The notes under the pieces are model-generated. The model saw only the letters and a program-made list of their open reading frames with translations, was not told the origin of the DNA and did no database searches. From Gammaproteobacteria bacterium (lineage in GTDB: Bacteria > Pseudomonadota > Gammaproteobacteria > SURF-13), in NCBI GenBank assembly GCA_030655395.1, contig JAURVQ010000083.1, forward strand, positions 3,907 through 67,906: a stretch of DNA of 64,000 nucleotides. The letters are read 5' to 3'. This document shows positions 1-22,902 of this stretch, piece by piece. The position numbers were made by a program, and so were the translations under genes. The stretch's first letter is position 1; each line of letters opens with the position of its first letter.

Positions 1-1474
1 GCGTTCCAATGCTGGGGGTGTAGTCGGAATCAGCAATGGCCGTGCCGTCGCTGGTGGAGTAGTCCACTGAAATCGCGCCTTCGCTGCCGCCGGTGCGGGT
101 TACGGTGATGGTGGCGCTGGCGCCGCTTTCGTCTACGCTGTAATTCGCCGCGCTGAATTGCAATGCGCCGGCGATGCCGGAGTTATAACGCGCGAGCGCG
201 AAGTCGCGGCTGAAGCTGCTGTTTGAGGAGTATCCGGCCGCGACAATCCTGCCGTCGCTTTGCAGGGCAACAGCACGCGCTTCGTCGGAACTGAAAAAGT
301 TGGTCATGACTTTCCCGTTTACGCCGAAGTCGATGTCGAGACTACCGTCAGCGAGATAACGCGCAAGCCCAAAATCCGCCCTGGCAATACTATCGCGGGC
401 AAGTCCGGCGGTTATAATCTTGTAATCAGACTGTATCTTGACGCTGTATGCGGCGTCGGGGCTGCCAAAGAAATCCGTGGTGAGCATGCCGTCGGCGTCG
501 AAGCTGATATCCAGACTGCCATCGGTGTTGTAGCGAGCAAGCGCAAAGTCGCTTGCGCCAGAGGGGCCGGCAAGCCCGGCAGCGACGAGCCTGCCGTCCT
601 GCTGCAGAGCCAAGGCATAGGCTTCGTCTGCACCACCGACGTCGGTAACCACCTTGCCGTCATTATCAAAAGTAAGGTCCAGGCTGCCGTTCTCATTGTA
701 GCGCGCCAGGGCAAAATCAGTATCCAATCCATTCGATGCTATGCCTGCCACAACAATCTTATTGTCGGCCTGAATCACCAGCCCACGCGCTTCATCCAAA
801 CCTCCGGAGAAATCGGTGGTCACCTTGCCTGCGGTACCAAACAAGGTATCTAAACTGCCATTGGTGGTGTAACGGGCAAGGGCGAAGTCACCTATTGTGC
901 CGATGCCCGCTGTGCCTGCAACGACAATTTTCCCGTCGGGTTGCAAGGCTATTGCGTAAACCCCGTCTCGACCACTGAAGAAATTCGTGGTGACCTTGCC
1001 GCTTGAGCCGAAAGTTGTGTCCAGGCTGCCGTTGGGGAGATAGCGTGCAAGGCCAAAATCTATGCTGCCACTGCTACCTATGACAAACCCTGCAACCAAG
1101 ATGTTGCCGTCCGGTTGCACAACGATAGCGCGCGCCTCATCGGCGCCGCTAAAGAAGTTGGTGGTAAGTTTACCGTCCCCGCTGAAGCTGGTGTCCAGGC
1201 CCCCGGTGCTTAGATAACGGGCAAGCCCGAAATCAGTGTCTCCCGTGGCAGTTCGGCTCAATCCAGCAGCGAGAATTTTCCCGTCGGCCTGCACTGCAAC
1301 AGCATTGGCCTCATCCACAAAGCCGGCAAAGTCGGTAGTCACCTTACCGTCAACATCGAAAGCTGTATCGAGCGTGCCCCCCGCTGCATAGGAATAGGAA
1401 GCAGGCATGGCGAGCAATAAACACGCTGCCATCCCAGCCATTGCTACCCTGTATCGCTGTGCTTGTTTTGTCAT
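1..1474 (-). CDS. Secreted delta-60-repeat (TIGR02608-like) protein, ~57-aa units 'DFALARY..DGSLD.SFG..GKV.TDF' x>=8; signal peptide MTKQAQRYRVAMAGMAACLLLAMPASYSYA; C-terminus runs past window start (partial)
   Basis: Own translation of minus strand: ATG at 1474, ~171-bp DNA periodicity visible as repeated blocks; not in ORF track because no stop inside window. Confidence 0.6.
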   Translation of the reverse strand, partial: MTKQAQRYRVAMAGMAACLLLAMPASYSYAAGGTLDTAFDVDGKVTTDFAGFVDEANAVAVQADGKILAAGLSRTATGDTDFGLARYLSTGGLDTSFSGDGKLTTNFFSGADEARAIVVQPDGNILVAGFVIGSSGSIDFGLARYLPNGSLDTTFGSSGKVTTNFFSGRDGVYAIALQPDGKIVVAGTAGIGTIGDFALARYTTNGSLDTLFGTAGKVTTDFSGGLDEARGLVIQADNKIVVAGIASNGLDTDFALARYNENGSLDLTFDNDGKVVTDVGGADEAYALALQQDGRLVAAGLAGPSGASDFALARYNTDGSLDISFDADGMLTTDFFGSPDAAYSVKIQSDYKIITAGLARDSIARADFGLARYLADGSLDIDFGVNGKVMTNFFSSDEARAVALQSDGRIVAAGYSSNSSFSRDFALARYNSGIAGALQFSAANYSVDESGASATITVTRTGGSEGAISVDYSTSDGTAIADSDYTPSIGT

Positions 1475-1586
1475 TTATGTGGACTCCAGCTAGGTTGTCA
1501 AAATTATAGCATTTTCTCTTTTGGCGGGAAGCAAAACACACAAGCATCGGGCCAGCAGACAGCGGTTACCCTATAAGTAATTGATT

Positions 1587-4500
1587 TTACGGCCTTTCAG
1601 AGGTATACAAAAATTGCACCTCACGTACGTACTCCGGGTTCTTGTTCCTGGATGTGGCGAAGTCCCCCGTTCCGGTGGCGCCGTCGCCGGCGACAGTTCC
1701 CTGACCCACGAGGGGGCTGTCGTCAAGCGCCGAAGTGACATTGAGCGTACTCCATTTAGGAGTCTCTGAAACATTGTAGCGCTCCAGGATAAACTGGGGG
1801 ATATCTATGGCGGCGTTGACTGTGGCATCAAGATCGGGGTTAGGGGAGATGCCATTGGCGAAGGTGACGGATGCATTGTAGGAGGTAAAGGTAGGGGGGG
1901 AGAGGCCGATGCTTAGATTTGGATTCTGCAAGCCCCAGTAACGGTTTGCACTGGCGGTAGCATCAAGATTAGTGGAGGCTCCGATCTGAGGGTGATCGAA
2001 TTTAATGGCATAGGCTCTTAAGCTTCCGGCGACACTGATTGAGTCAAAGGTCACGACCAAGGGGGCATATACAGGGTTGGCTGTCGTACCAAGGTCGCCC
2101 ACTTCGAACGTGCGGCTGATATCCGAACCCGCTGGGAAAAATTTTGTAAGGCCCCCCCCCACGTGACCGCTGGCGCGCGTCACGTTGCCGGTACTTGAAA
2201 TAATCACACCCGGCGTGGTAGCAGTCGGATCCATGCTGAGGATTCCGCTCACCAAATCAAGCAGCTTAGTAACAATGACATCGAAATCGAACATGCTAAC
2301 CCCTGAGGGTGTCGTCGCATCCGTATTATTTATCGTGAGATTGTAAAAACTCGTCGAACTCGCGGGAAGAAAGGTCTGCAGCGCGGTACCGTTGAAGACG
2401 ATGGTGCTATCGCCCGCAGTGAAGGTGCCGTCCTTGGTGAAGTCGCCACTGATGTTATGGATCAATGAGGCTGAACCGGCATTGAATGTGGACGAAAGAT
2501 TGATGATAAAAGTACCGATAGTCAGTGCCGTATTTGCTGTAACGCCGGATGCGTGGGTGTTGGCGATGGTGAGTGAGGTAAACGTCGTGGCGTTGCCGGA
2601 GATTGTCTGTCCTGCGGCGGTGCCGTTGAAGGTGAACACTCCCGTGCCGGAGTTGAAGGTACCGCTATTGGAAAAGTTGCCGGCCAGATTCACGGTCGGA
2701 TTGTTCGTGGCCGCGCGTGTCGTACCGGTTCCGAGTGTGAAATTGCCCGCGATGGTGGTCGTTCCGGCAGCCATGGTTTTGGTGCTGCCACCATCGAGAA
2801 TGAGATGGCCGTAGGTCAGCCCGGAGGCAATCGTCTGATTTCCACCCTGAAAGTTCACGGTGCTGGTGGCGCCGAAGGTGCGTGTGGTGAAGCCGGTCGG
2901 GATGTTGGTAGTGCCGGTCAGGTTAAAGCGGGCACCATTGGCGACCTCGAAGGTTGTTGCGGGACCCACATGCACGAATCCGCCGTTGTTCAGGATGCCG
3001 CTTTGCACGCGCAGGTTGCCGAGGACTCTGGCCGCCGAGATCGCGGCACTCAAAGTGGCGCCGCTCGCGCTGGTGTTGTTCACATGCAGATTGCGGTAAT
3101 TGATGCTGCTTACGCCGATTGGAATGGTCTGCGCTACTGCTCCATTGTAGTTAAATATGCTCGTCGTACCCGGCGTCAATGTGCCCACTGTGGCCGTAAA
3201 CGCGCCGGCGAGATTGATGGTTCCCGCGCCGGTTATAGTGAGCAGATTGCTGGCGACGTTGCCGGTAATAAACACCAGGTTGCCGGCGATGTTGAGCGTG
3301 CCGGTCGAGAGGGTGATGCTGGCGATGAAAGTGGCGGTCGTGCCGGTTCCGCCCAGTGTTACGTTGCCTCCGGCGGTCACCGTGTTGGCACCGATAGCCA
3401 GGACATTGGTAGCGGCGGCGTTGGGTCTGTTCACCGTGACGCTCCCTGATGTCGTGAGGGAGGCTCCTGTTCCGGTCAATGTCAGGCTGCTGGGACCGGT
3501 GACTGGGGTCGCATTGCCAATGGTGACGGACGCAGCGCTGGCGGCGTAGCTGGCCGGGATGGTGACTGTGCGCCCGGTGGCGGTCTCACCGATAAACACG
3601 GCGCTGCCGCCATCGGGTATGCCTCCCGCCCCGGCGCAGGTCCCGGCCACGCCGCCGGAGGTCGAGGCCCACGTCGTGGCGACGTTCCAGTCAGCAGTCA
3701 ATGGATTCACGGCGTAGCAATTGGCGGCGGGCGTGAACGGTGAGCCGGTCGGCACCACGCCCGGGGTGGAGAAGTTGCCGTTGCTGTCTCTGGTAAATAT
3801 CCGGTAGTGGTAAGCGGTGCCGTTGGTAAGGCCAGTGTCGGTACACGTCGTGGCCGGGGGCAAGCCCGTGACGACGCACCGCACCTCGCTTGTGCCAACG
3901 GTATTGCCGACAATGTACGTGGTTCCTTCAACGGGCGTGTCGGCGACAGGGCCCGCCGTGCTCCTCAATACCACGATGCTATAAGCTACGGTCTCCACAG
4001 GACTTACGGGATTGGCCCAAGTAAACACGACTTGCGCATTCCCCGCCGTTCCCGACGCGGCGGTGACATCCCCCGGAGACAGGTTGTCTATCGTCACCGT
4101 GGTGCCGGCGGTGTCGGTTCCCTCATTTGGATTCGTACCGGTCCATGAGTTTATTTTTGCGGTGACCAAATAGGTGGATCCGGGCGGCACCTGCATGGCC
4201 GCATGACTTTTCGGCGTGATGCGGATTTTGTACTGGGTTAAGGTCGTGGTGGCCGTGAGCGTATTGGTGGACAGCGTGATCGTCGGTGTATCGCTGGCGG
4301 GATTGGCGACCGAACCGTAAACCGTGGTGCCGGCATCGTTGGTGATTTCCACCAGACTCAACCCGCCGGAGGAGCCCACCGAGAGCCCGACCACGGCCGC
4401 CGTGATCACATCCGTGCCGGTGCCGGTCTGGAAGGTAAACGCATCTGCCATGGTCGCTGCGCCGCCGGGCGCGAGGGGGGCTGCGGGCGGTGCCGGGTCG

Positions 4501-5297
4501 GCGCCGTTACCGAGGCGAGTGCCAAAGGGCTTCAGTGCCAAAGAGATTGCACCTTTAAACGAGGTGTTCGCTAGCGTCACGGTTGTGTTGGCGTATGCTG
4601 ATGCGCTTGCTTTAACACCCGTTGCCATACAATGCCCGCCCCCAAGACCGGCGGTATTGGTGTTGTCTGTCCGTTCTGTCAAGCTTGTCAGGTCGGCATT
4701 TGCTCCAAAGGAGCATTGGGCAGTGCTAGTGCCGTTGAAGCTTGTAGAGGTTATGAGGGCAACCAGGGTTTCGGCTACTGTCGTTGTTGATCCGGGGATG
4801 GCGCCCGTCGTATCGTTAGCAGCGCCATCGTTACCGCCTGCGCCGGTATCCCAAGGATTGCCAGAAGTTGTGACGTCCAAGAAACAATGAATCTGGCCTG
4901 TTGTGTGGTCTCCTGAGTCTGCGACGAGTGGCGCCGTATCGCCGCCCACTGTGCGCTTCCAGAATAACGCTAACCGGGAAGCCGGGTTTGTAGCAGCTGT
5001 GCCAGCGAACTGTGGGGACCATGTGGGTACTTCAGCAAAACCATTCGCCGTCGTTAGTGAGATCGCCTGGTTCTCCGACTCCACAGCGAGCAGGCAAACA
5101 TCGTTGGCCGCCATACTTGCCGGATAGGGTGGCGTGATAGTTCCTACTCCAGCCGTAAAAGTACCCGAGGCTCGATATGCCGGCGCGGCTTGTACTTCGT
5201 TCACCTCGGCCAAGGCAAACACCAGCATCCCCAGCAACAAAAAGGACCAGAAACGCGGTCTTTTTAAGGCTGGCATCGCTGACAGTTTGGCGGGCAT
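1587..5297 (-). CDS. mshQ: MshQ-like large pilus-associated adhesin (1236 aa from ATG at 5297; signal peptide MPAKLSAMPALKRPRFWSFLLLGMLVFALA; FN3-like segment and long Gly/Thr/Asn beta-helix-like repeats)
   Basis: ORF 1587..5552; internal ATG with hydrophobic signal; size and last position in msh operon match MshQ. Confidence 0.5.
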   Translation of the reverse strand: MPAKLSAMPALKRPRFWSFLLLGMLVFALAEVNEVQAAPAYRASGTFTAGVGTITPPYPASMAANDVCLLAVESENQAISLTTANGFAEVPTWSPQFAGTAATNPASRLALFWKRTVGGDTAPLVADSGDHTTGQIHCFLDVTTSGNPWDTGAGGNDGAANDTTGAIPGSTTTVAETLVALITSTSFNGTSTAQCSFGANADLTSLTERTDNTNTAGLGGGHCMATGVKASASAYANTTVTLANTSFKGAISLALKPFGTRLGNGADPAPPAAPLAPGGAATMADAFTFQTGTGTDVITAAVVGLSVGSSGGLSLVEITNDAGTTVYGSVANPASDTPTITLSTNTLTATTTLTQYKIRITPKSHAAMQVPPGSTYLVTAKINSWTGTNPNEGTDTAGTTVTIDNLSPGDVTAASGTAGNAQVVFTWANPVSPVETVAYSIVVLRSTAGPVADTPVEGTTYIVGNTVGTSEVRCVVTGLPPATTCTDTGLTNGTAYHYRIFTRDSNGNFSTPGVVPTGSPFTPAANCYAVNPLTADWNVATTWASTSGGVAGTCAGAGGIPDGGSAVFIGETATGRTVTIPASYAASAASVTIGNATPVTGPSSLTLTGTGASLTTSGSVTVNRPNAAATNVLAIGANTVTAGGNVTLGGTGTTATFIASITLSTGTLNIAGNLVFITGNVASNLLTITGAGTINLAGAFTATVGTLTPGTTSIFNYNGAVAQTIPIGVSSINYRNLHVNNTSASGATLSAAISAARVLGNLRVQSGILNNGGFVHVGPATTFEVANGARFNLTGTTNIPTGFTTRTFGATSTVNFQGGNQTIASGLTYGHLILDGGSTKTMAAGTTTIAGNFTLGTGTTRAATNNPTVNLAGNFSNSGTFNSGTGVFTFNGTAAGQTISGNATTFTSLTIANTHASGVTANTALTIGTFIINLSSTFNAGSASLIHNISGDFTKDGTFTAGDSTIVFNGTALQTFLPASSTSFYNLTINNTDATTPSGVSMFDFDVIVTKLLDLVSGILSMDPTATTPGVIISSTGNVTRASGHVGGGLTKFFPAGSDISRTFEVGDLGTTANPVYAPLVVTFDSISVAGSLRAYAIKFDHPQIGASTNLDATASANRYWGLQNPNLSIGLSPPTFTSYNASVTFANGISPNPDLDATVNAAIDIPQFILERYNVSETPKWSTLNVTSALDDSPLVGQGTVAGDGATGTGDFATSRNKNPEYVREVQFLYTSERP

Positions 5298-5298: not shown

Positions 5299-5763
5299 TT
5301 ATTCCGGCGGTCCATAACGGTTGGAGACGGTGGCTTCGAGGCGGCGGCTGGCATAGTCCGGGTTGCCGAAGGCGCCGTATTCGGCGGTGCTGGTGAGGAC
5401 AAGAACGTTAAAGATATTGTTCCCGCCGCCAGGGGTGCCGCCTTCTCTGTGGCGGCTGTAGCTGCAGGTAATCGTAATGTTGATGTCAGGCAAAGAGGCA
5501 TCGGTGAACGTGGACGTGGAATTCGTGCATGGAGACAGCAGCGGTACAGCACTGCCGGCGGGGGTATTCACCGCGCGATTTATGGCCCATTCCAGCCCGC
5601 TTTTGGCGGCATAATAGGTGCGCGCGGCAATGACGGCATGGCTCGTGGTTGCTTGCTGCACGCCGCTGATGGTGACCATGTAAACGCCCAATGCGGCCAG
5701 CACCACGAGCAGAAAAATGGCGCTTATCAGGGTAAAGCCGGAGCAGCAGCGGGCAGCACTCAC
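5299..5763 (-). CDS. MshP-like pilus biogenesis protein (N-terminal hydrophobic prepilin-like segment GFTLISAIFLLVVLAAL)
   Basis: ORF 5299..5763; position between mshO-like and mshQ-like. Confidence 0.5.
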   Translation of the reverse strand: MSAARCCSGFTLISAIFLLVVLAALGVYMVTISGVQQATTSHAVIAARTYYAAKSGLEWAINRAVNTPAGSAVPLLSPCTNSTSTFTDASLPDINITITCSYSRHREGGTPGGGNNIFNVLVLTSTAEYGAFGNPDYASRRLEATVSNRYGPPE

Positions 5764-6773
5764 CGGCTGTTCTCCACCAATACCTGATGCAAGAGCCGCA
5801 CCGTGCCGCCGGTCGTGTCGGAGAGGGTTAAATCGAGTGTTACAAGGCCGTATCTACGCACCGAATTGAAATCGCTGTTAATCGTGCAGGCGCTGACCTG
5901 GGCAGAGACGGGTGCTTTGATCACCCCGGGCAGCGCATCCAGCGTGGCTGCCGTGGTGGGTTGGGCACTCTGAATCGGGTAGTTGGCATAGCGGGTGAGC
6001 GTGCCCAGGGAAGGAGTGGTGCTGTTGGGCACGCACAGGTAAGTGACGGGTGTCTCGATGACGTACAGTCTTTGGTTGGGGCTCGCGCCGGCTGCGCTGG
6101 TGCTAAATCGGTGGAAGACCGCAGTACCTACAGAATTTCTAAAACTAATATGTGTTGCGCCCACGCTTCCAGGGATCGGGGCGGCTACATCGGTACCTGT
6201 CGCGGTGGTCGAATAATTAATCACGAAATTGGTTAAAGGAGTAATCACCCCTGTAGTTGGTGCTGCGCCACCCGCAGGTTCATAGGCGGAATTGCCCGTT
6301 GTCCCACGGTTGTTGATCACCATTCTGTGGGTCGCACTGCTGGTGCCAAGGGGGGGAAGGGGGACAATATGCTGGAAGAGTCTGTGAATATCAAACTGAT
6401 CATCGCCGGCGGCGCCGAATGAAAGGGCTTGAGCGGCGCCTGTGTTGTCGTTATTTATGCCGCCGCCGGTCGTGTCGCGGTACATCGCCCCGTCAATCAC
6501 CGGCAGCATCTCGAGGGCAAAGCCGCTGACAGTATTGATGCGCACGCTTTTGGGCAGCGCGTTGCGCATCTCGCGCGCCATCTGGCGCAGCGCGCTTTCG
6601 GCGTTGTTCACCAGCAGGGCGCGACGGGTGAGGTCTTGATAGCCCTCGATGGGGCGGGTGATAAACACGGCGGCGAGCGCCAGCATGATGCCGGAAATAA
6701 CAAGGGTGAAGACCATCTCCACCAGCGTGAAGCCAGAGGGGCGCGGTGATGCTGGGTGTGTTATGCGTGTCAT
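5760..6773 (-). CDS. MshO-like prepilin-type protein (GFTLVEMVFTLVISGIML)
   Basis: ORF 5760..6773; class III signal motif G|FTLVE. Confidence 0.55.
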   Translation of the reverse strand: MTRITHPASPRPSGFTLVEMVFTLVISGIMLALAAVFITRPIEGYQDLTRRALLVNNAESALRQMAREMRNALPKSVRINTVSGFALEMLPVIDGAMYRDTTGGGINNDNTGAAQALSFGAAGDDQFDIHRLFQHIVPLPPLGTSSATHRMVINNRGTTGNSAYEPAGGAAPTTGVITPLTNFVINYSTTATGTDVAAPIPGSVGATHISFRNSVGTAVFHRFSTSAAGASPNQRLYVIETPVTYLCVPNSTTPSLGTLTRYANYPIQSAQPTTAATLDALPGVIKAPVSAQVSACTINSDFNSVRRYGLVTLDLTLSDTTGGTVRLLHQVLVENSR

Positions 6774-7474
6774 GATGCTGGGCAGGTCTCGCCCAGTTTT
6801 CCTCCGACACCGCCGACACCGCAGAGATAGTTGGTGCGGTAGGCGGTGAGCGGTATGTCGATATCGGAAAAATCATCGTGCGTGACGCGCACCGTGATGC
6901 GCAGCACGCGTATGCGTACCGGCGGCCCCACCGTGTTGGCGACGAGGTTGGCGGTAGGGCCCAGCGTCACGCCGCTGCTCACCACGGCGGCGAAGACGTT
7001 ATAGCGTTCCAGCCCGGCGATGGTATTTCCCTGCCGGTCGCAGACGCCACCGGTAGGAGTATTGCAGCCGTTAGTGGCTACGCTGCCGCTGGTACTGTCG
7101 AGGTTTGCATAATCGCAGACGTTGTTATAAGCGGAGCGCCCGGCCACTTCCCGGGGAGGGCAAGCGGTGGGATTTAAAAACTTCTGCGCCAGGATTTCCT
7201 CCATATACGACTCGGCAATCAGCAGCGCCTGTTGGCGCAGCATGGGGTCGGCGCTGTGGCTGCTGGTCATGCTCATCACCAGCAATATGCCCGACACGGC
7301 GATGGCGACGATGACGATAGAGACAATCAGCTCGATGAAAGTCACGCCGCGAGCGTTGGCGTAACGCTGCCCGCCCCCATTCCTGCCGTCCCTCTTGCGG
7401 GGGCGGGGGGTGAGGTTGTTTTGAGTCATAAAAAACTTGTTCATGGCGCGGCTACGAATCCAGTCGCCCCCCAA
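6770..7474 (-). CDS. MshD-like minor pilin (GVTFIELIVSIVIVAIA prepilin motif)
   Basis: ORF 6770..7474. Confidence 0.55.
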   Translation of the reverse strand: MGGDWIRSRAMNKFFMTQNNLTPRPRKRDGRNGGGQRYANARGVTFIELIVSIVIVAIAVSGILLVMSMTSSHSADPMLRQQALLIAESYMEEILAQKFLNPTACPPREVAGRSAYNNVCDYANLDSTSGSVATNGCNTPTGGVCDRQGNTIAGLERYNVFAAVVSSGVTLGPTANLVANTVGPPVRIRVLRITVRVTHDDFSDIDIPLTAYRTNYLCGVGGVGGKLGETCPAS

Positions 7475-7893
7475 ATGGCGAACGATCTGCTGCCTACGGT
7501 GACCGTCGCCGAGCTGTTGGAAATGGTCGGCACGGTGCCGTAGGCGTCAAACACAATGGTGGTGGGATTCATGTTGAGTGTGATTCCGTCCGGCGCGTTG
7601 CCGATGAAGTTTGCGAATGTGCCGGGGTTGCGCACTGGCGCGGTGCCGTTGCTTTGCGTGAGCGCGAAACTGGTGTTGGTGACGACGGCAAACCGGACGG
7701 GGAGGCCGCTGGTGACGGCGTATTTCTGGGCGAAACGCGCCGCGGCGGTGACTTGATCGTAAAAACCGCGTTCATCAATATCGCCTTTGTTGAAAAAGCG
7801 CGGCCCGGCCACTGCGGCAAGGATGGCGCTCAGGATAAGCACCAGCACCAGTTCGACCAGTGTGAATCCGCTTGTTGTTTTATGATCGATCAT
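7441..7893 (-). CDS. MshC-like minor pilin (GFTLVELVLVLILSAILAA)
   Basis: ORF 7441..7893; prepilin N-methylation motif. Confidence 0.55.
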   Translation of the reverse strand: MIDHKTTSGFTLVELVLVLILSAILAAVAGPRFFNKGDIDERGFYDQVTAAARFAQKYAVTSGLPVRFAVVTNTSFALTQSNGTAPVRNPGTFANFIGNAPDGITLNMNPTTIVFDAYGTVPTISNSSATVTVGSRSFAIWGATGFVAAP

Positions 7894-10113: not shown

Positions 10114-10131
10114 AACTGCCCCTCGTTCTGT
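10096..10131 (-). terminator. Strong 14-bp-stem hairpin (acagaacaaggggc/gcccctcgttctgt) immediately downstream of major pilin gene; no clear U-tract
   Basis: Direct reading of inverted repeat. Confidence 0.4.
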
Positions 10132-10156
10132 ATGTCTTAATTTCCCGGGAGCGAGT

Positions 10157-12317: not shown

Positions 12318-12869
12318 CTAGCGGTTGATCCAGGAATACGCCTCAAGTGCTTCGAGCCGTACGCCGCGGATGGCGTCCACGCCGTTGTCGAAGCGGCCGT
12401 TGTCGTTCATGTCGTCGTAATCGAGCCTGACGGCAAAGCGCGCGCGCGCGGGACCCGTGAGAGACGTCTTGAAGTATTCCACGTTGCTGACACGATACAC
12501 GAGCGTGCGGTCGTGCAGGTCGAAATACCACTGGCCGCCCTCGACCGCGGCCGGGTCGGGAGCGTCCAGTTCGCCCACGTAGTTGTTGGGGGTTTCGCTC
12601 AGGCGGCGCATCGGGTTGGTGTCGACGAGCGCGGTGAGCGCCGGAATCTTCCCTTTGGCGACATGCGCGGCGACCTCGATGCTGAGCGCGCTCTTGAGCG
12701 CGCCGAGTACGTTTTCCATAGCGGTGCGTTCGGCGTCGATGCGCAGCGGCAGCAGCTTGTTCACCGCGATGACGAGCAGCAGCACGATGATGCCGATCAC
12801 CAGCACCAGTTCGAGCAGCGAGAAGCCGCCCGAAAGGTTGCGTGCGTTGCGCAGCGTCTTAACCACCAC
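12318..12869 (-). CDS. MshF-like protein with prepilin-type N-terminus (G|FSLLELVLVIGIIVLLL)
   Basis: ORF 12318..12869; position between mshG and pilins. Confidence 0.5.
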   Translation of the reverse strand: MVVKTLRNARNLSGGFSLLELVLVIGIIVLLLVIAVNKLLPLRIDAERTAMENVLGALKSALSIEVAAHVAKGKIPALTALVDTNPMRRLSETPNNYVGELDAPDPAAVEGGQWYFDLHDRTLVYRVSNVEYFKTSLTGPARARFAVRLDYDDMNDNGRFDNGVDAIRGVRLEALEAYSWINR

Positions 12870-16006: not shown

Positions 16007-17455
16007 TCATCCGCTCACCTGTGCTTTCAAAGTGGAGATGCGGCCCTTGACGAAATCAAACACGGCCGGGCTGAGACTGCCCGTGGCCTGCGCGTGGCGA
16101 TAGGCCTCCAGCGCCTCGGCGGGCTGTTGTGTCGCTTCGAGCGATATCCCCAGCCCCATCCACCATACGCCCTGCTGCGGCTGGCTGGCAAGCGCCTTGC
16201 GGTAGGCGCTGATCGCATCGTTGTGGCGTTCCATGCGCTGGTAGAGTGCGGCGAGAAAGGCCTGATACTCGATATCCTGTGTGGCGCTTGCGGCCTTGCC
16301 TTCCAGCACGGCGAGCGCCGCCGGGGTGTCGCCCTGATCCACCAGTACGCGTGCATACAGTTTGGTGAATAACAGGTAATCCGGTTTGAGCCTGATGCCC
16401 TCGGTGAGCACCGCCTCCGCTTCCTGCGCGCGCGCTTGCTTGAGCAGCGCATCGACCAGCGCTTCGCGCGCCTTGAGGTGCTGGGCATCCAGCACCAGCG
16501 CCTGGCGCAGGCGCGGTTCCGCGGCCTCCGGTTTGCCCTGCTGCAATAGCTGCGCCCCGTCCTGCCATGCTTGTTCGGCCTGTTCCGCGGCGGATAGAGC
16601 GCGCGCCTTCTTGAGGCTGCGGGCAGCGGTGCTGGCGGCGGGGCGCGAGGGTGCTGTAGGCGCTGTGGCGCTGCCGCTGCCCTGGACGGCGAGATCACTG
16701 TCGCCCTTTACCCCCTCCGGATAGAGGTCGATGACGAGGCGGTGGCCATAGTCCTGATCCGGCCCCAGCACCAGGCTCTTGGCCTGCGCCGCCGCCTTGA
16801 GGGTGAGCGTCAGCCGGAGATTCTGCTCGCCCTGGGGCTCGGCCTGCACCTGCTTGAGCAGGCTGTTGCTCAGATCAAACACGGGCAGCGGCTGGTCGAG
16901 CGCGGCGTGCTCCAGGTCGATCACCACGTACTCGGATTGTACGCTGAGCCGGTGCGTGATGGGCGCGCTCGCATCCAGCACCAGACGGGTGTGGTCGGGC
17001 AACACGCTGAGGCGCAGGGCCTGAATCTGCGTGACCGGGGGGGAGGGTGGGGAGGCCGGCGGCGGATCCGGCGCAACAGCGGCTGCCGGGGTCTCCGTGC
17101 CGGGTGTCGCAGTGACGGGCGCAGATGTGTCGGCGGCGGTGGCCTCAACCGGCGCGCTCACGGCCGGCGGTGCGGCCGCAGGCGCCTGCACCTGCGCCAC
17201 GGGTTGTGCAGCCGGATGTGGGGCGAGAATACGCCACGCGCCCCAGATGATGACGGCGGCGAGTACCGAGGTGCCGGCCAGCGCGGCCAAGCGCAGGGCA
17301 GGCGAGCGGGAGATCTGTTCCAGAAGACTGGAGGCGCGTGCAGAGGCCGTCTGGCCTCCCGGCCAGATCAGGTCGTTCAGCGCCGCGCCATCCGACGGCG
17401 CGGACTTGGTGCGGCGCGACTCGAGGTCTTGCAGCATCTGGTTGATGAGGCTCAT
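16007..17455 (-). CDS. mshN: MshN-like TPR protein (N-terminal TM, Ala/Pro-rich linker, C-terminal TPRs)
   Basis: ORF 16007..17467; start MSLINQ overlapping mshM stop (ATGA). Confidence 0.6.
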   Translation of the reverse strand: MSLINQMLQDLESRRTKSAPSDGAALNDLIWPGGQTASARASSLLEQISRSPALRLAALAGTSVLAAVIIWGAWRILAPHPAAQPVAQVQAPAAAPPAVSAPVEATAADTSAPVTATPGTETPAAAVAPDPPPASPPSPPVTQIQALRLSVLPDHTRLVLDASAPITHRLSVQSEYVVIDLEHAALDQPLPVFDLSNSLLKQVQAEPQGEQNLRLTLTLKAAAQAKSLVLGPDQDYGHRLVIDLYPEGVKGDSDLAVQGSGSATAPTAPSRPAASTAARSLKKARALSAAEQAEQAWQDGAQLLQQGKPEAAEPRLRQALVLDAQHLKAREALVDALLKQARAQEAEAVLTEGIRLKPDYLLFTKLYARVLVDQGDTPAALAVLEGKAASATQDIEYQAFLAALYQRMERHNDAISAYRKALASQPQQGVWWMGLGISLEATQQPAEALEAYRHAQATGSLSPAVFDFVKGRISTLKAQVSG

Positions 17456-18378
17456 GGCAGCGGCCACCTGCCGTAGTAGTAATAATATGCACCGAGGCCG
17501 AGCGCCGTCAGCGTGGCCAGGGCGAGAGCAGTGTAAGCGAACTTAATCCAGGCTGATTTTTTCTCCTCGTGCACGTCGATGGTGTCCTGGATGGCGAGGC
17601 GCATGTGTTCGTGACCGATGGCGCGCGCACCCTGACCGAAGGCCGCAATCAGCGCCTTATGGCTGAGGATGTTGATCAGGCGGGGGATGCCGCGGCTGGC
17701 ATGGAAAAGCTCATTCAGCACCGCATGCGGAAACAGACGCTTGCCGTGATAACCCGCCACCAGCAGGCGATGGGCGATGTAGCCTTCCATGCCCTCCCGG
17801 TCCAGCGGCGATAGATGATAGGAAAAACCGATGCGCTGTTTGAGCTGGCGCACCGAGGGCAGGTCCAGCACCATGTCGAGTTCCGGCTGACCGAACAGCA
17901 CCACCTGCAACAGCTTGCGTTTCTCGGTCTCCAGATTGGTGAGCAGGCGCAGCGTCTCCAGCGTCTGCTCCGGCATCGCCTGCACCTCGTCGAGGCACAG
18001 CACCACGCGTTTGCCTGCGGCGTAAAAATCAATCAGCGCCTTGGTGAGCAGTTTCAGCAACTGGTGCTGGTTGATGTTTTCCGGATATTTGATGCGCAGC
18101 TCATCCGCTATCGCGAGCAGCAGTGTCATCGGTTCGAGGTAGGGGTTGTGGATGTAGGCGGTGACGAATTCGCTGCGCAGTGTGTTGAGAAACTTGCGGC
18201 ACAGCAGTGTCTTGCCGGTGCCGACCTCGCCCACCACCTTGATGAAGCCCTCGCCGCTGCGCACCGCGACCAGCAACGTGTTGAGCGCCTCGACATGCGA
18301 GCCGTAGGCGTAAAAAAAACTGGTGTCGGGCGTGATGGTGAACGGAATCTCGCGCAGACCGAAGTGTTCGAGATACAT
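17452..18378 (-). CDS. mshM: MshM, ExeA-like AAA+ ATPase (GEVGTGKT Walker A)
   Basis: ORF 17452..18456 trimmed to ATG MYLEHFGL at 18378. Confidence 0.8.
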   Translation of the reverse strand: MYLEHFGLREIPFTITPDTSFFYAYGSHVEALNTLLVAVRSGEGFIKVVGEVGTGKTLLCRKFLNTLRSEFVTAYIHNPYLEPMTLLLAIADELRIKYPENINQHQLLKLLTKALIDFYAAGKRVVLCLDEVQAMPEQTLETLRLLTNLETEKRKLLQVVLFGQPELDMVLDLPSVRQLKQRIGFSYHLSPLDREGMEGYIAHRLLVAGYHGKRLFPHAVLNELFHASRGIPRLINILSHKALIAAFGQGARAIGHEHMRLAIQDTIDVHEEKKSAWIKFAYTALALATLTALGLGAYYYYYGRWPLP

Positions 18379-18379
18379 G

Positions 18380-20044
18380 CTACTTGGCGGCGGGCCGCAG
18401 CGACTTGAGCGATTCCGCGGTCTTGCGCAGCGTCTGGGTCCATTGCTGCTGGTCATCGACCACGATCGGGCGCAGCAGAATCACGAGCTCGCTCTTGCGC
18501 GCCGAGTTGCGCCGGTTGTCCAGCAGGCCGCCAATGCCGGGCAAGCCGGAACGGTCCTTGCGCGTGGTGTCCTGCATCAAGCCACCGATCACGATCAGCT
18601 GGCCGTCGGCGGCGCGCACGATGCTGTCGGATTCACGCACGCTGGAGAGCGCAAGCGGGAATGTTTGCGACACACCGCCCACGCTTATCGTCTTGGTCTG
18701 GTCGCGCACCTCACTCACCGTCGGGTGGATGTGCAGAATCACGTCACCGTCTTCGCTGATCTGTGGCGTGACATCGAGCGCGATGCCGGAAAAGAACGGT
18801 GTGAGTGTGAGGCTCGGGGTGGTCGTGGTGGTGCCCGTCGTAGTCGTGGTCGTGGCGGAGGCGCTGGTCACGAAAAATTCGTCCGAGCCCACCTTGATGA
18901 TGGCCTTCTGATTGTTCACGGTGGACACGCGTGGACTGGAGAGCACCTGCACCTCACCCTGGCTTTTCAGCAATTCGATGAAGGCGTTGAAGTCGGACAG
19001 CGCGAGCGCGAGTGAAAACACGCCGGTGGCGACGGAGAAGGGGCTGGCGCCGGCGACACCCGTGGCACTGAACACGCTGCCGCCGATCTGGCCGGCGGTG
19101 ACGGTCTTGCCGTCACCGGGTTTGCCAAGCAGCGACCAGTTGATGCCGGATTGAAAACCGTCCTTGAGCTCCACCTCGATGATCTTGGCTTCCAGTATGA
19201 CCTGGCGCTCGATGGAGCCCTGTGTCGCCTTGAGAAATTCATCAATACTGCGCAGTTCGCCCGGCAGTGCGCGCGCTACCACCACGCCGGATTGCGGATT
19301 AACCACCACGCTGCGCCCGCCTTCGGTGCCGATCAGTATTTTTAATGCGTCTTCCAGCTCGGTCCAAAAATCGGAGTGTGACTGGGTGCTGATCTGGCTG
19401 GTACCACTACTGCCGCCCGTGCCCGTGGTACCAGTGCCTGTAGTGCCTGTAGTGCCTGTAGTGCCCGTGGTGCCACCGCCGCCGCCCGTTAATTGCCCGG
19501 CACTGACACTGATGCGGGAGTTGCCGGTGCGGTTGATGGTGAGGTAGTTGACCTTGAAGATGCGCGACTGCAGCGCCGCAGGCAAGACCTGGTAGCCGGA
19601 GGCGGAGCGCTGGAAGTCATAACCGTAGACATCGCGCACGGCGTCCATCACTTCGGGGATGGTGACGTTCTTGAGAGTAAGCGAGATGTCGCCCGTGACC
19701 TGCGGGTGCACCACCATGTTGTAGGGCGTGCCCTCGACCAGGCCCATGAAAAATTCCTGCGCGGGCGCCTTGCTGACGGCAACGTCAAAGCGCGGCTCGC
19801 TGGGTGTGCCGCCGGATGTGGAGGAGATGCCGATGGAGGGCAGCAGTGCCGCAGAGATTTCGGCGGGTGGCGCGGCGGGTGCGGGCGCCGCTGTGCCGGA
19901 GGCCCCGAGTGCGGCGTCGATACGATCCATCGTGGTCGGGCCTTGCGCGGGCGGTGCCGCGCAGGCGGACAGCAGCAGGCATAGTACGACGAGAGAGGCT
20001 GATCGGGGGTGCGGCGCGGACGGTTTTGCTGGATAACGGTTCAT
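18380..20044 (-). CDS. mshL: MshL secretin (lipoprotein signal LLSAC; Gly/Thr-rich linker; secretin C-domain)
   Basis: ORF 554 aa. Confidence 0.85.
   Translation of the reverse strand: MNRYPAKPSAPHPRSASLVVLCLLLSACAAPPAQGPTTMDRIDAALGASGTAAPAPAAPPAEISAALLPSIGISSTSGGTPSEPRFDVAVSKAPAQEFFMGLVEGTPYNMVVHPQVTGDISLTLKNVTIPEVMDAVRDVYGYDFQRSASGYQVLPAALQSRIFKVNYLTINRTGNSRISVSAGQLTGGGGGTTGTTGTTGTTGTGTTGTGGSSGTSQISTQSHSDFWTELEDALKILIGTEGGRSVVVNPQSGVVVARALPGELRSIDEFLKATQGSIERQVILEAKIIEVELKDGFQSGINWSLLGKPGDGKTVTAGQIGGSVFSATGVAGASPFSVATGVFSLALALSDFNAFIELLKSQGEVQVLSSPRVSTVNNQKAIIKVGSDEFFVTSASATTTTTTGTTTTTPSLTLTPFFSGIALDVTPQISEDGDVILHIHPTVSEVRDQTKTISVGGVSQTFPLALSSVRESDSIVRAADGQLIVIGGLMQDTTRKDRSGLPGIGGLLDNRRNSARKSELVILLRPIVVDDQQQWTQTLRKTAESLKSLRPAAK
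19427..19465. repeat. 9-bp tandem repeat (agtgcctgt)x3-4 encoding (TG/TT)n linker in secretin
   Basis: Direct reading. Confidence 0.7.
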
Positions 20045-20439
20045 GGCTGTGGCGTCGTAGTCCTCCCGCTCGGGGTTTTCACCGCTGCGGGCTGCATGGT
20101 AACAGAAAATTCTCCCTGGGTATCACGCAACCGCACGGTCGCGGGCGCCACCTCGACCACGGTTGCACCCTCGAGGGTGTCGCCGGGTTTGACCGCGCGG
20201 CCATTCACTACCGCAATGCGCCGTTGGGGCGAGATCAGTGTGGAGGTCAGCAGCCAGCGCTGGATCGGCGTAGCACTGCCGACATCGGGTTGCGCCCCGC
20301 CCACCGGTACGGCTTGGTAGTTGGGCGGCGGTTCGGTGGGATCTGACAAACCCTTCTCCGCCAGCGGCAATTCGGCTTGCACGGTGGATAGAGAAAAGAG
20401 CAAAGAGGCAAGAGAAAAGAGGAAGACACCCGCTCCCAT
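20041..20439 (-). CDS. MshK-like small periplasmic/lipoprotein (PilP-like position)
   Basis: ORF 20041..20484, start at MGAGVFLFSLASLLFSLS signal. Confidence 0.45.
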   Translation of the reverse strand: MGAGVFLFSLASLLFSLSTVQAELPLAEKGLSDPTEPPPNYQAVPVGGAQPDVGSATPIQRWLLTSTLISPQRRIAVVNGRAVKPGDTLEGATVVEVAPATVRLRDTQGEFSVTMQPAAVKTPSGRTTTPQP

Positions 20440-20478
20440 TCCTTTTCTCTTTGCTCTTGCCTCTTTGCTCTGTCTTTC
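20388..20478. repeat. Palindromic 'gagaaaag/aggcaagag' repeat; related copy at 23575..23670; here overlaps the signal-peptide codons of mshK-like gene
   Basis: Direct reading of both loci. Confidence 0.7.
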
Positions 20479-21151
20479 AGCCACCGATCCAGCCCTCCTT
20501 GAGGCTCAGGGTATGCACGGTGATGGTGATGCGGGCCTGCGGAAATGTCTGCACCCGCAAATCCACGCCGTCCCAGAACAGCCGCCACGGCAGCGCCTCC
20601 AGCGCCTTGAGGTAGCGCAGTGTGGCGAGATAGCTGCCCTCGAATTCAATCACTAGGCCGTGTTTGTAGAGCACGGGCGATGACGGCGTGGCGGGGGCGG
20701 TTGCGCTGCCGGGCGTCAGCGGCGCCGCGCCCAGATTTTTTGCGCGCACCAGTTTAAGGCCGGGTTCGCGCGTCAGCGCCTCCTCCAGCATCTGCGCCAT
20801 CTGCGCGGGCTCGATCAGGCCCTCCATCATGCGCGTGATTTTTTTGTCGAGTTCGTCGCTCTCTGTCTTGAGCGCCGCGAGCTGTGCGCGGGTTTCCTCG
20901 TTCGGGTCGAGGCCTTGCCGGGTTGCCTGGATCGCCTGAATCTGCTGTCCGAGCGCCGCGATCTGTTGCTGCACGGCGCTGATGTCGTTATTTAACCGTT
21001 TGCGCTCCGCGCCGAACGGCTGGTACACAAAGGTATTGCCCAAGGCGATGATCACGCCGAACACGATGGCGCCGAGCAGCGCGCGTTCACGCACGGCGAG
21101 TGCATTGATGCGTGAGGTGAGTTGCTGCAATGAGGCCTTGAGCGCGTCCAT
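20477..21151 (-). CDS. MshJ-like (PilO/GspM-like) inner-membrane pilus assembly protein
   Basis: ORF 224 aa, single TM then coiled-coil. Confidence 0.6.
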   Translation of the reverse strand: MDALKASLQQLTSRINALAVRERALLGAIVFGVIIALGNTFVYQPFGAERKRLNNDISAVQQQIAALGQQIQAIQATRQGLDPNEETRAQLAALKTESDELDKKITRMMEGLIEPAQMAQMLEEALTREPGLKLVRAKNLGAAPLTPGSATAPATPSSPVLYKHGLVIEFEGSYLATLRYLKALEALPWRLFWDGVDLRVQTFPQARITITVHTLSLKEGWIGG

Positions 21152-21154
21152 GGG

Positions 21155-21787
21155 TTACGGTGCGGGCGAGGCGGCGGGCGCCGCCGCCGGAGGCTCGCTG
21201 CCGGTGCGCAGTGTGAAGTCGAGGCGCCCGGCGTCCGCCTCCGGACGCTGTATGAGCAAGGTGCGGAATTGGACACCGGCAAATACCTTTTCATCCGCGA
21301 GACGCTGGATATACGCGGGCACCAGCCCTGGGGTCAGGGTGCTGCCCGTGAGTTCGATGCTGGCGCCGCCGGCACCGAGCGCCATGCCGGTTAGCCACAA
21401 GCCTTGCGGACGCTGGCGCGCGAGTCCCTCCATATAAGGTGAAAGGCCATTGATATTGCCTGTGACATCGGTGGACGATGCCTGTACTACGCTGCGTTTT
21501 GGCTCCAGCGCGGCTCGCAGGCGCACGAGCTCCGCTTCCAGTTGCACATCCTTGGTCTTGGGCGGGAACTGCCTGGTGAGCTCTTCCATGTTGCGGGTGG
21601 TATCCGCCTGTTGCTGTTGCAAGCGCGCAAGCTCTTCACGTAACGGTACGGTTTGCCAGCGCATAAAACCGTACACCAGCAGGAGCAGGATCAGCCCTGC
21701 CGCGCCGCCCAACGGCAACAAGGTGGCGAAGGTCCAGCGCTGGGGCCGGAACGCCGCCTGATAGAGATTGATCTGCTGGGTCGCCAC
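21155..21787 (-). CDS. MshI2-like (PilN-like fimbrial assembly) protein
   Basis: ORF 210 aa, TM + coiled coil. Confidence 0.6.
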   Translation of the reverse strand: MATQQINLYQAAFRPQRWTFATLLPLGGAAGLILLLLVYGFMRWQTVPLREELARLQQQQADTTRNMEELTRQFPPKTKDVQLEAELVRLRAALEPKRSVVQASSTDVTGNINGLSPYMEGLARQRPQGLWLTGMALGAGGASIELTGSTLTPGLVPAYIQRLADEKVFAGVQFRTLLIQRPEADAGRLDFTLRTGSEPPAAAPAASPAP

Positions 21788-21790
21788 GTT

Positions 21791-22834
21791 CTAGGCCGAC
21801 CCGTTGCCTGTCCGCAGCGCCGCGCCGATGGCGAGCAGGCAGCGCGCCTGCAAAGACCGGCTCAGCGGGGCGGCGCACTGTATGACCTGGTTGAGATCGA
21901 GTTCGTGCGTGGGGATGCCGATGTTGGCCGCGATATAGTTCACGGCGCCGGGCACCTCCGGCTCCATGGGTGTAATCACCAGTTGCGTAATCGGTGGCTG
22001 CGCATAGTGGCTTTCGTAGTAGTCGAGCGAGCGCTGGATTTCAAGGATGATACCGTCCAGCGCCTGCTTCAGTTCGGGAGTCGGTTCATCGAATCCGTCA
22101 TTGCGGCCTTGCGCCGCAGGCGGCAGGTAGCTCATGAGTCTCGCGGTACCGGCCTCGATGCTGCGTGTGAGAAACAGCATGGACTGGCGCGTGAGGATGA
22201 TGTGTCCGCCGTGCTGGGCAAGGTGCAGCAGGGCGAGACCGCGGCTGTCTTCCGGCAGCAGGGCGGCGATATTGCGCAGCGCAAGCTCCGGGATGTCGAT
22301 CACGGAGAGCTTCAGGCCCGCCCCGCGCAGCTGCGCGGCGTAGCCCTGCACCGTGGCTGCGCGCGCGGCCACGGCATAGATGGTGCGGGGCCGCCCCGGC
22401 GGCTGAGCGGGCAGGTCGAACACGTCGATCACGGCCTGATCCGGCGGAAAATCGATGAGGTCCTTGATGCGCCAGCGGGCTGCGGCCTGAAGCTCGGCCG
22501 CCGGCACCGCCGGCGCCTCAATCAGCAGCAGGCTGTAGGACTGCGCCTCCATCACCGCGCTGCACGGCGCGTTGCCGAGCCGGTACTCGCGCGCGAGGCT
22601 CGCCAGGGCCTTGTCCGGATCAACCTCGGCCAGCGGGCGGAACACGCACGACTCAAGCTCCGGGCGCGCGCCCTCGCGGCGCCGCACGCGCGCCACGCTG
22701 AAGCCCGCAGGCGTGACGCTGATGCCGTTCAGCGTCTTGAGCCGCGCCGTTTGACCGAGCAGTGCAAGCAAATGAGCGCTCCCAATATGTGATGAGACGT
22801 GGCAAAAAAGTGAGATTCTGCTGCAAGTTAGCAC
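21791..22834 (-). CDS. MshI1-like (PilM-like actin-fold) protein; start uncertain (GTG/TTG, AT-rich 5' region)
   Basis: ORF 347 aa. Confidence 0.55.
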   Translation of the reverse strand: MLTCSRISLFCHVSSHIGSAHLLALLGQTARLKTLNGISVTPAGFSVARVRRREGARPELESCVFRPLAEVDPDKALASLAREYRLGNAPCSAVMEAQSYSLLLIEAPAVPAAELQAAARWRIKDLIDFPPDQAVIDVFDLPAQPPGRPRTIYAVAARAATVQGYAAQLRGAGLKLSVIDIPELALRNIAALLPEDSRGLALLHLAQHGGHIILTRQSMLFLTRSIEAGTARLMSYLPPAAQGRNDGFDEPTPELKQALDGIILEIQRSLDYYESHYAQPPITQLVITPMEPEVPGAVNYIAANIGIPTHELDLNQVIQCAAPLSRSLQARCLLAIGAALRTGNGSA

Positions 22835-22902
22835 AGCAACTTATTGTTGTAAATGATATTAGGGGGTGGGCGCGCAGACGCACTGTGTACGCGCCCGTGC
22901 TT

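Follow-up and report, generated by a model that had tools for sequence, protein, structure and literature searches.

A probable type IV pilus locus of the MSHA type in an uncultured Acidiferrobacterales-like gammaproteobacterium, with a Wzy_C-TPR gene, a four-helix membrane protein gene and a putative tip protein gene

A 64,000-nucleotide (nt) stretch of contig JAURVQ010000083.1, hereafter the window, comes from the metagenome-assembled genome (MAG) of a gammaproteobacterium and carries 20 same-direction genes on its minus strand at positions 1 to 22,834. These genes raise a simple question: do they constitute a locus for a type IV pilus of the mannose-sensitive hemagglutinin (MSHA) type, and are those that have no place in the classical layout chance insertions or members of the system? 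A preliminary description of the same DNA had read the region as a complete msh locus with four departures, namely a split mshI, a protein with four transmembrane (TM) helices between mshF and the pilin genes, a gene for a Wzy_C domain with tetratricopeptide repeats (TPR) between the major and minor pilin genes, and a secreted delta-60-repeat protein after mshQ. Our analysis suggests, at a probability of roughly 80%, that the region is a chromosomal MSHA-type pilus locus of an uncultured Acidiferrobacterales-like gammaproteobacterium, with the extras explained below. The four departures are real, yet they are mostly lineage features.

The genes, most of which overlap or are closely packed and between which no break occurs, follow the order I-J-K-L-M-N-E-G-F and then B-A-C-D-O-P-Q, save that I is split and that two extra genes are present; profile and positional evidence bears out the minus-strand, msh-type order of the 20 genes that the preliminary description had given. 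Gene families were called by scanning the window proteins against the NCBIfam and Pfam hidden Markov models (HMMs) at their curated cut-offs. The product of the secretin gene (18380 to 20044; this and all other genes of the locus lie on the minus strand) reached the MshL equivalog TIGR02519 with 257.4 bits (cut-off of 250.2), matched Secretin and Secretin_N_2, and stayed below the cut-offs of the PilQ and type IVB secretin models. In the same scans, every equivalog of the type II secretion system (T2SS) remained under its cut-off, including GspE (557.6 bits against 630), GspF (324.8 against 424), GspD (153.7 against 351), GspG (at most 31 against 88.9) and GspL (21 against 65), and no GspC, GspL or GspM equivalog was found. 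Similarly, TadA (TIGR03819) scored 63.6 bits against a cut-off of 373, and the Pfam and NCBIfam scans returned no match to any Flp or Tad family. The prepilin-type N-terminal cleavage/methylation motif exceeded the Pfam cut-off in five proteins. The MSHA identity and the pilin-type signal peptides proposed earlier are thus both upheld. A matching gene order was found in metagenome loci and in about 20 of the genome loci fetched for comparison (designated by L numbers), one of which belongs to Thiohalophilus thiocyanatoxydans (L026), a cultured organism.

By the standard of the Vibrio msh locus, the locus is complete. Neither a prepilin peptidase gene nor a PilT-type gene was found in the window, and the Vibrio locus is not known to contain either; the peptidase and any retraction ATPase would be encoded outside the locus, as in Vibrio. 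Scans of the locus for promoters and terminators gave about as many hits as expected from shuffled sequence and set no firm operon boundaries, and the Rfam search revealed no riboswitch or cyclic di-GMP (c-di-GMP) element near the locus.

The assembly machinery opens with two genes in the place of mshI. The mshI1-like gene (21791 to 22834, given as the longest open reading frame [ORF], with the real start probably further in) encodes a PilM-type, actin-like cytoplasmic protein (PF11104 PilM_2, 30.7 bits, cut-off of 27; TIGR01175 pilM, E value of 3.8 × 10−9), and the mshI2-like gene (21155 to 21787) encodes a PilN-type bitopic membrane protein (PF05137 PilN, 30.0 bits, cut-off of 22.8) with a weak match to the C-terminal part of GspL. 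The split described earlier is therefore present, but it is not unusual: gene calls show separate PilM-like and PilN-like genes in the relatives L001, L002 and L115 too, and the published Aeromonas MSHA gene list contains mshI and mshI1, so that a split mshI is an already known, common state and the rule among relatives. Next come a T2SSM/PilO-type mshJ-like gene (20477 to 21151; PF04612 T2SSM, 33.5 bits, cut-off of 27.8) and an mshK-like gene for a small lipoprotein or secreted protein (20041 to 20484), assigned by position and by weak T2SSB (20.6 bits) and GspC matches. Downstream of mshL lie mshM, which encodes an ExeA-like AAA ATPase (17452 to 18378; AAA_22, 97.6 bits; TIGR03015, 228.9 bits, below cut-off), and mshN (16007 to 17467), whose product combines an AMIN domain (PF11741, 32.8 bits) with several TPR families. 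The mshM product probably begins with MYLEHFGL, from a start at 18378 that is separated from the mshL stop by 2 nt, whereas the longest ORF extends to 18456; the homologue in L002 is 307 amino acids (aa) long. The platform gene mshG (12859 to 14094; two T2SSF domains, 196.2 bits; below cut-off for the GspF and PilC equivalogs) is followed by an mshF-like gene (12318 to 12869), which is kept in the same slot in relatives and encodes a protein with a pseudopilin-like N terminus, GG|FSLLE (weak N_methyl match of 16.1 bits and a match to the N-terminal part of GspG). By homology, MshI1, MshI2, MshJ and the MshG platform form the inner-membrane and cytoplasmic part of the assembly machine, and MshL is the outer-membrane secretin with MshM and MshN as helpers.

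The extension ATPase gene mshE (14102 to 15862; T2SSE, 447.8 bits) encodes the N-terminal c-di-GMP-binding-type module reported in the preliminary description (MshEN PF05157, 57.6 bits; NF053729, 74.8 bits, cut-off of 38). The MshE-related NF053729 motif, at residues 12 to 64, consists of tandem 24-residue units joined by a 5-residue spacer, RLGDLLVEHQVITPAQLAAALASQ-KKTGH-KLGRMLIDSGVIDEDKLLDFLSRQ, and motif I has Gln at a position where the consensus has Gly. Through this module, extension would be made c-di-GMP dependent. The EAL-CBS-GGDEF protein (600 aa; 28430 to 30232, plus strand) that had been placed some 13 kb away is encoded at a distance of 12.6 kb from mshE, with a gap of 5.6 kb to mshI1, and a gene for an OmpR-type response regulator (Response_reg and Trans_reg_C) follows it directly, the pair spanning positions 28430 to 31006 (plus strand). 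This pair could be a local c-di-GMP input to MshE, the sole link being proximity.

Two paralogous pilins of the major type belong to the system. The mshB-like gene (10779 to 11234) encodes a type IV pilin with the leader MNKQKG|FTLIE and a C-terminal disulfide loop (N_methyl, 38.2 bits; TIGR02532, 34.9 bits), and the mshA-like gene (10157 to 10603) encodes its paralogue with the leader MQRQQG|FTLIE (35.4 and 34.5 bits, respectively). A promoter-like site lies near the mshB-like gene (11451 to 11422, minus strand). Between the two pilin genes, at 10638 to 10657 on the minus strand, an 8-bp GC-rich stem-loop (CAAGGGGCTGCGGCCCCTTG) precedes a T-rich stretch and might govern how much of one pilin transcript is made relative to the other. 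The minor pilin genes comprise an mshC-like gene (7441 to 7893; GspH/ComGD-like; N_methyl, 25.4 bits; GspH, 20.2 bits; ComGD, E value of 8.8 × 10−9), an mshD-like gene (6770 to 7444; GspI/PilV-like; TIGR02523 PilV, E value of 2.9 × 10−7; N_methyl, 23.2 bits), whose likely ATG start at 7444 overlaps the mshC-like stop while the longest ORF reaches 7474, an mshO-like gene (5760 to 6773; 337 aa; N_methyl, 26.4 bits), placed in the GspJ/PilW position by location and size, and an mshP-like gene (5299 to 5763; 154 aa) in the GspK/PilX position, with a weak PilX_N match (18.4 bits). The roles of the mshD-like and mshO-like products follow a 2026 PNAS paper that assigns MshD, MshO and MshP to GspI, GspJ and GspK (PMC13533445). 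The mature MshP-like N terminus, FTLIS, is devoid of Glu at position +5, and this lack is the hallmark of PilK/MshP (PMC13533445). Together, MshC, the GspI-like MshD, the GspJ-like MshO and the GspK-like, Glu5-less MshP make up, by homology, the tip or priming set.

The first of the two extra genes (8080 to 10113) lies between the mshA-like and mshC-like genes and encodes a Wzy_C membrane enzyme of the WaaL/PglL type (PF04932, 73 bits, cut-off of 31.7) with a C-terminal periplasmic TPR domain (TPR_19), which we consider a putative pilin O-oligosaccharyltransferase (O-OTase). The NCBI start at 9966 yields a 628-aa protein and the longest ORF one of 677 aa. More than 100 homologue clusters, at 35 to 82% identity, share the same Wzy_C-TPR architecture of about 650 aa. 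A profile built from 25 homologues matches the WaaL structure 7TPG over the membrane core (E value of 3.6 × 10−13), and its C-terminal part matches TPR proteins, including OGT. Across these 25 homologues, R236, H280 and D282 do not vary, and R169 hardly does. The spacing of the catalytic-type Arg/Arg/His residues (67 plus 44 residues) resembles that in WaaL and PglL, in which R215/R288/H338 and R224/R298/H349, respectively, are essential (PMC3643930). According to an approximate hydropathy count, the catalytic loop at residues 214 to 294 is followed by four hydrophobic segments, and the 223-aa TPR domain is therefore predicted, with the same approximation, to lie on the same, periplasmic side.

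Is this gene a passenger? The preliminary description rightly placed it between the major and minor pilin genes but treated it as an oddity of this locus, and in this respect it must be corrected. Msh or pilin genes accompany the family in 37 of the 80 fetched genome loci that carry it, and at an identity of at least 35%, 15 of 22 loci are msh linked. In a first group of loci, the gene occupies the gap between a pilin gene and the mshC-like gene (L002, L004, L009, L013, L024 to L026, L031, L035, L038, L052, L062 to L064, L067, L071, L078 and L096); elsewhere it stands upstream of mshE (L005, L006, L008, L010 and L015), after the mshP-like gene (L019 and L020) or in convergent orientation (L018 and L027). 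Two Nitrospirae loci (L069 and L081) and one Verrucomicrobiota locus (L060) also pair the Wzy_C-TPR gene with pilin genes. One MAG contains two paralogues on a single contig (L017 and L018; JAJFJU010000026.1), which share 37 to 38% identity with the window protein; an msh locus lies convergent to one of them, and the other has no msh genes within 10 kb. Like the four-helix protein gene described below, the Wzy_C-TPR gene is a recurrent, conserved member of an environmental MSHA-like locus type and not a genome-specific insertion.

The four characterized classes of O-OTases all carry Wzy_C and are typically encoded next to a pilin gene (PMC3643930, PMC9829042). Judged by its sequence, the Wzy_C-TPR protein fits none of them. 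No PglL_A or Wzy_C_2 (PglL_B) match was found in it at a Pfam E value of ≤0.01, and since both pilins end in a disulfide-bonded Cys (...TGC and ...AGC), the C-terminal Ser/Thr site used by TfpO/TfpM is absent. We consider it on balance probable that the protein glycosylates pilin on the periplasmic side: it would move an undecaprenyl-pyrophosphate-linked glycan onto an internal Ser/Thr, and the TPR domain would recognize the pilin or the glycan. A Ser/Thr feature of the pilin C termini that would mark Wzy loci was sought across loci with and without the gene, and none was found. In the literature, we did not find a description of an O-antigen-ligase-type gene inside an msh cluster.

Several observations count against a pilin-directed enzyme. 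No sequon was found that separates the pilins of Wzy-carrying loci from those of Wzy-free loci, no glycan-synthesis genes were found nearby, 3 of the 22 close homologues lack msh linkage although their flanks are complete, and Wzy_C enzymes include O-antigen ligases and polymerases. Accordingly, the protein might be an ordinary O-antigen ligase, or a polysaccharide polymerase or ligase, that merely travels with the pilus genes while the pilin stays unglycosylated. Besides the missing sequon, this alternative draws on the family name "O-antigen ligase" used by NCBI and JGI, on WaaL as the sole solved relative of the profile, and on homologues without msh neighbors (L007, L016, L017 and many at <28% identity). 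It is at odds with a linkage to msh or pilin genes that survives the rearrangements listed above and recurs in taxa as distant as Nitrospirae and Verrucomicrobiota, and with the location of the gene inside a structural operon, in the gap from major to minor pilins. Furthermore, WaaL genes normally reside in lipopolysaccharide (LPS) core clusters and encode no TPR domain. The context in the window is a pilus operon, and no LPS genes were found there. We regard the ordinary ligase as possible but doubtful and retain the putative pilin O-OTase as the preferred assignment.

The second extra gene (11467 to 12084) encodes TM4, an uncharacterized 205-aa protein with four membrane helices that matches no family in the Pfam and NCBIfam scans. 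While a word-indexed search returned only 10 relatives, an HMM search of 1.84 billion cluster representatives recovered 865 at an E value of ≤1 × 10−3 and 628 at ≤1 × 10−10, nearly all of full length (about 200 aa) and almost always named "hypothetical protein" in their sources. The conservation of its slot was assessed by tblastn of the window proteins against the fetched loci. Located between the mshF-like gene and the first pilin gene, the slot is kept in 11 genome loci and in 20 of 29 metagenome loci at 23 to 47% identity, so the gene noted earlier at this position is indeed there but is no one-off. Its retention at such identities across many genera argues for a role in the pilus system, and its presence in loci without the Wzy gene (L087 to L091, L097 and L098) ties it to the pilus machine and not to the Wzy gene. 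The alignment revealed a TM-loop-TM unit duplicated within the protein, with the patterns [TM - P..N..LN.W.STR...PL..PR..E..YRHHR..G - TM] in unit 1 and [TM - RPSLLK..E..N.W.STR...LD....D....HPR..G - TM] in unit 2. By eye, loops 1 and 3 contain 7 and 9 Lys plus Arg residues, and by the positive-inside rule these basic loops are predicted to be cytoplasmic. We tentatively propose, at somewhat less than even odds, that TM4 serves the assembly platform as an accessory in the inner membrane and that its two conserved basic loops would touch MshE, MshG or MshI1.

This proposal is weakened by the failure to find an informative fold match and by a subgroup at about 28% identity that occurs outside msh loci, with L110 lying amid unrelated transporter and metabolic genes. 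TM4 could instead be a functionally unrelated small membrane protein in the gap between two msh operons, as its lack of a known domain and the paralogous subgroup among transporter genes would allow, or a factor handling lipid-linked glycans, as hinted by weak matches to the flippase region of LPG_synthase_TM in 11 of 31 family members (best E value of 1.3 × 10−4). The constancy of the mshF-pilin slot is difficult to reconcile with an unrelated protein, and the Wzy-free loci speak against a glycan-handling factor; we therefore rate these alternatives, taken together, as rather unlikely and keep the platform accessory as the working assignment. In L001 (GCA_040960095.1), a rearranged MSHA-like locus, two copies of the TM4 gene are present, at 10016 to 10576 and 17494 to 18066, one before the mshI1-like gene and the other after the mshN-like gene; there, a TPR-only protein encoded on the opposite strand replaces the Wzy_C-TPR gene, and a 1,240-aa Big_1/Invasin_D3 protein follows the minor pilins.

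What occupies the mshQ position? The gene at 1587 to 5297 starts 1 nt after the mshP-like stop and encodes a secreted protein of 1,236 aa. A signal peptide is followed by a jelly-roll domain A (residues ~37 to 257), a domain B (~257 to 525), a T/G/N-rich, beta-helix-like body and a tail, ...EVQFLYTSERP. No Pfam match was found at an E value of ≤0.01, and LamG and DUF6701 are absent, whereas true MshQ-type relatives score 197 to 360 bits on DUF6701. The Q-like label given earlier is supported by the N-terminal modules, the tail and the position, but not by these two MshQ domains. Domain A is 70 to 86% identical to the N termini of many large proteins, including DUF6701 MshQs (P0217 and P0218); for the DUF6701 MshQ encoded after mshO/P-like genes in L115, the figure is 82%. 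At the C terminus, the consensus of the Q-like family, ...EFIYTRELYY, resembles the ends of DUF6701 MshQs (...FIFFRENY, ...SIYLRERY and ...YIYLRERY); when the last 420 residues of both families were compared with hhalign, the final 10 columns alone aligned (E value of 4.5 × 10−4, with a low probability of 33%). Such an FIYxRE-type tail is present in seven proteins encoded after minor pilins (window, L002, L026, L078, L115, L117 and L118) and is lacking in three domain-A/B proteins encoded away from pilus genes, a small sample.

MshQ, like PilY1 and PilC, is predicted to donate its extreme C-terminal strand to the Glu5-less MshP (PMC13533445). By analogy, the tail of the window protein would insert as a beta-strand into MshP, and its beta-helix-like body would replace LamG and DUF6701, so that the adhesive part is swapped. 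We consider it likely that the 1,236-aa protein is an MshQ/PilY1-type tip protein with such an exchanged body. The assignment must contend with the window tail, in which FLYTSERP deviates from the consensus FIYTRELYY, with the lack of MshQ homology beyond the N-terminal modules and the 10-residue tail (the body of about 700 residues is conserved in full-length homologues only), and with the presence of domains A and B in nonpilus proteins: domain B, for example, occurs in tandem in FN3 and multiheme-cytochrome giants without pilus neighbors. A pilus-specific docking function of domain A was ruled out, as A-plus-B proteins are encoded beside cytochrome, FN3 and radical-SAM genes without pilus genes. 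As an observation in its own right, both domains are reused at 50 to 85% identity in P0128, P0168, P0222 and P0225, which carry FN3 arrays, multiheme cytochromes and PQQ-type propellers; these giants span several phyla, Acidobacteria, Patescibacteria and Dehalococcoidia among them, a striking cross-phylum identity, and no Pfam model exists for either domain.

Beyond this gene, at a distance of 112 bp and cut by the window edge (1 to 1474), lies the gene for a secreted delta-60-repeat (DUF5122 beta-propeller) and Calx-beta protein (TIGR02608, 380.2 bits, 8 repeats; DUF5122, 211.5 bits; Calx-beta, 37.2 bits). A secreted repeat protein does adjoin the mshQ position, as stated earlier, but it is kept in one close relative only: L117 has the same gene after its Q-like gene (85% identity, 652 aa), and it was found in none of 83 other loci, several of which stop short of that point. 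In L118 (10896 to 18631), a 1,352-aa RTX (HemolysinCabind) protein with its own type I secretion genes takes the place that the delta-60 protein has here, behind the Q-like gene. These neighbors raise the alternative that the machine is mainly a T2SS-like secretion pseudopilus that exports the delta-60/Calx-beta protein, rather than a long adhesive pilus. MSH systems are close to T2SSs, GspE, GspF and GspD are the next-best models here, and both the window and L117 have a secreted repeat protein behind the Q-like gene, as L118 does with its RTX protein. The alternative is nevertheless very improbable, given that the Gsp equivalogs all stay under cut-off or, for GspC and GspL/M, are absent, that the MshL cut-off is exceeded, that a large tip-type protein, which T2SSs lack (PMC13533445), is present, that the RTX protein of L118 has its own type I system, and that the delta-60 gene is missing from more distant msh loci. 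The delta-60 protein is a neighbor, and adjacency is its only link to the pilus system, which we continue to read as an MSHA-type pilus.

Rhodocyclales and Nitrosomonadales, suggested earlier as comparison taxa, turned out not to be appropriate, as the relatives are Acidiferrobacterales-like Gammaproteobacteria. By the Wzy protein, the nearest genomes are Sulfuricaulis, Sulfurifustaceae and Acidiferrobacteraceae MAGs (41 to 53% identity), with Thiohalophilus and Thioalkalispiraceae more distant. NCBI entries 100% identical to the TM4, Wzy and large proteins (Q7U07_06420, Q7U07_06380) carry the annotation hypothetical or "O-antigen ligase family." When the window is compared with L117, the machinery is 86 to 94% identical (MshE, C-terminal part, 87%; MshG, 89%; TM4, 94%), whereas the pilins (65 to 72%), MshF-like (59%) and Q-like (60%) proteins are far more diverged, as expected of surface-exposed parts.

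Nearly all work on MSHA pili has been done in Vibrio, Shewanella and Aeromonas. The window locus and about 40 related loci represent a variant with two extra conserved genes in many uncultured sulfur-cycle and groundwater Gammaproteobacteria, and in some Nitrospirae and Verrucomicrobia loci a Wzy_C gene likewise accompanies genes for pilins and assembly ATPases. Should the Wzy_C-TPR protein indeed glycosylate pilin, it would be the first MSHA-dedicated O-OTase and a new enzyme class, possibly useful for glycoengineering, a field in which the substrate scope has grown with every new class of O-OTase. The common tail on otherwise unrelated MshQ-position proteins lends independent sequence support to the beta-strand-addition model of the tip, and the FIYxRE-type tail offers a simple motif for spotting tip proteins. 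The TM4 family is a well-defined unknown with a cultured carrier, T. thiocyanatoxydans DSM 16326. The most far-reaching proposal, which we advance only as a speculative possibility, is an environmental MSHA subtype that jointly combines three undescribed features: a Wzy_C-TPR fifth class of pilin O-OTase acting at an internal site of MSHA pilin, a new family of internally duplicated four-helix proteins of about 200 aa serving as a dedicated assembly component in the inner membrane, and a modular tip protein with a freely exchangeable body between a conserved N-terminal jelly-roll and a short FIYxRE-type docking tail.

The remainder of the window contains a tRNA-Gly(CCC) gene (25282 to 25355, plus strand), a borderline Rfam match to the Xanthomonas small RNA sX9 (40356 to 40430, plus strand; 44.3 bits, the gathering score being 44) and a gene for a 465-aa protein (38900 to 40297, minus strand) that ends in a retropepsin-like aspartyl protease domain (gag-asp_proteas, 88 bits) and has about 350 family-free N-terminal residues. 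Genes for the PHA synthase PhaC (45274 to 46953, plus strand) and a phasin (50738 to 51721, minus strand) were also identified. Near them, the long Pfam-free ORFs at 41105 to 42451, 42805 to 44436 and 48182 to 50161 may be wrong-strand artifacts of DNA with 60% GC. Two tandem chemoreceptor genes (58873 to 62869, plus strand) encode the same HBM-HAMP-MCPsignal architecture.

Compared with known systems, the locus is most readily set beside V. cholerae MSHA (mshIJKLMNEGF/mshBACDOPQ), with which it shares the gene order, an MshL-type secretin, MshE with MshEN, an ExeA-like MshM and a TPR-containing MshN, as well as two pilins, a set of four minor pilins with a large secreted protein behind it, and a prepilin peptidase and PilT encoded elsewhere. 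It differs in the split mshI, the TM4 gene after mshF, the Wzy_C-TPR gene between the pilins and minor pilins, an MshQ-position protein without LamG/DUF6701, an AMIN domain in MshN and the absence of an adjacent mshH/CsrD-like gene, the EAL-CBS-GGDEF gene lying 5.6 kb off. In V. cholerae, the O-OTase gene pglL (VC0393) is located just upstream of, and outside, the msh operon, and glycosylation of MSHA has merely been speculated upon. The Aeromonas MSHA/Bfp locus (mshI, mshI1 and J to Q) has two mshI-type genes and the same overall order, but its published gene list lacks the TM4 and Wzy_C genes present here. Like MshQ, PilY1 and PilC, the Q-like protein is a large, Sec-secreted product encoded directly after a GspK-like minor pilin, and it shares the tail and N-terminal modules of DUF6701 MshQs, while its body is T/G/N-rich and beta-helix-like in place of the LamG and DUF6701 of MshQ or the beta-propeller of PilY1.

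With TfpO/PilO, TfpM, PglL and PglS, the Wzy_C-TPR protein has in common a Wzy_C domain with catalytic His and Arg residues and a gene that comes right after a type IV pilin gene and runs in the same direction. These enzymes are 420 to 600 aa long and have no TPR (PMC9829042), whereas the protein described here comprises 628 to 677 aa and a C-terminal TPR domain of about 220 aa. TfpO and TfpM in particular measure 420 to 470 aa, and their cognate pilins carry the Ser/Thr after the disulfide loop (PMC9829042), neither of which applies here. Moreover, the known O-OTases serve PilA- or ComP-type systems, and this one is attached to an MSHA-type system. TfpW, the group IV pilin arabinosyltransferase of Pseudomonas aeruginosa, is alike in being polytopic, about 646 aa long, encoded directly after the pilin gene and equipped with a periplasmic C-terminal TPR; it is, however, modeled on ArnT (GT-C, DDX motif), whereas the core of the window protein is like Wzy_C/WaaL and not like ArnT.

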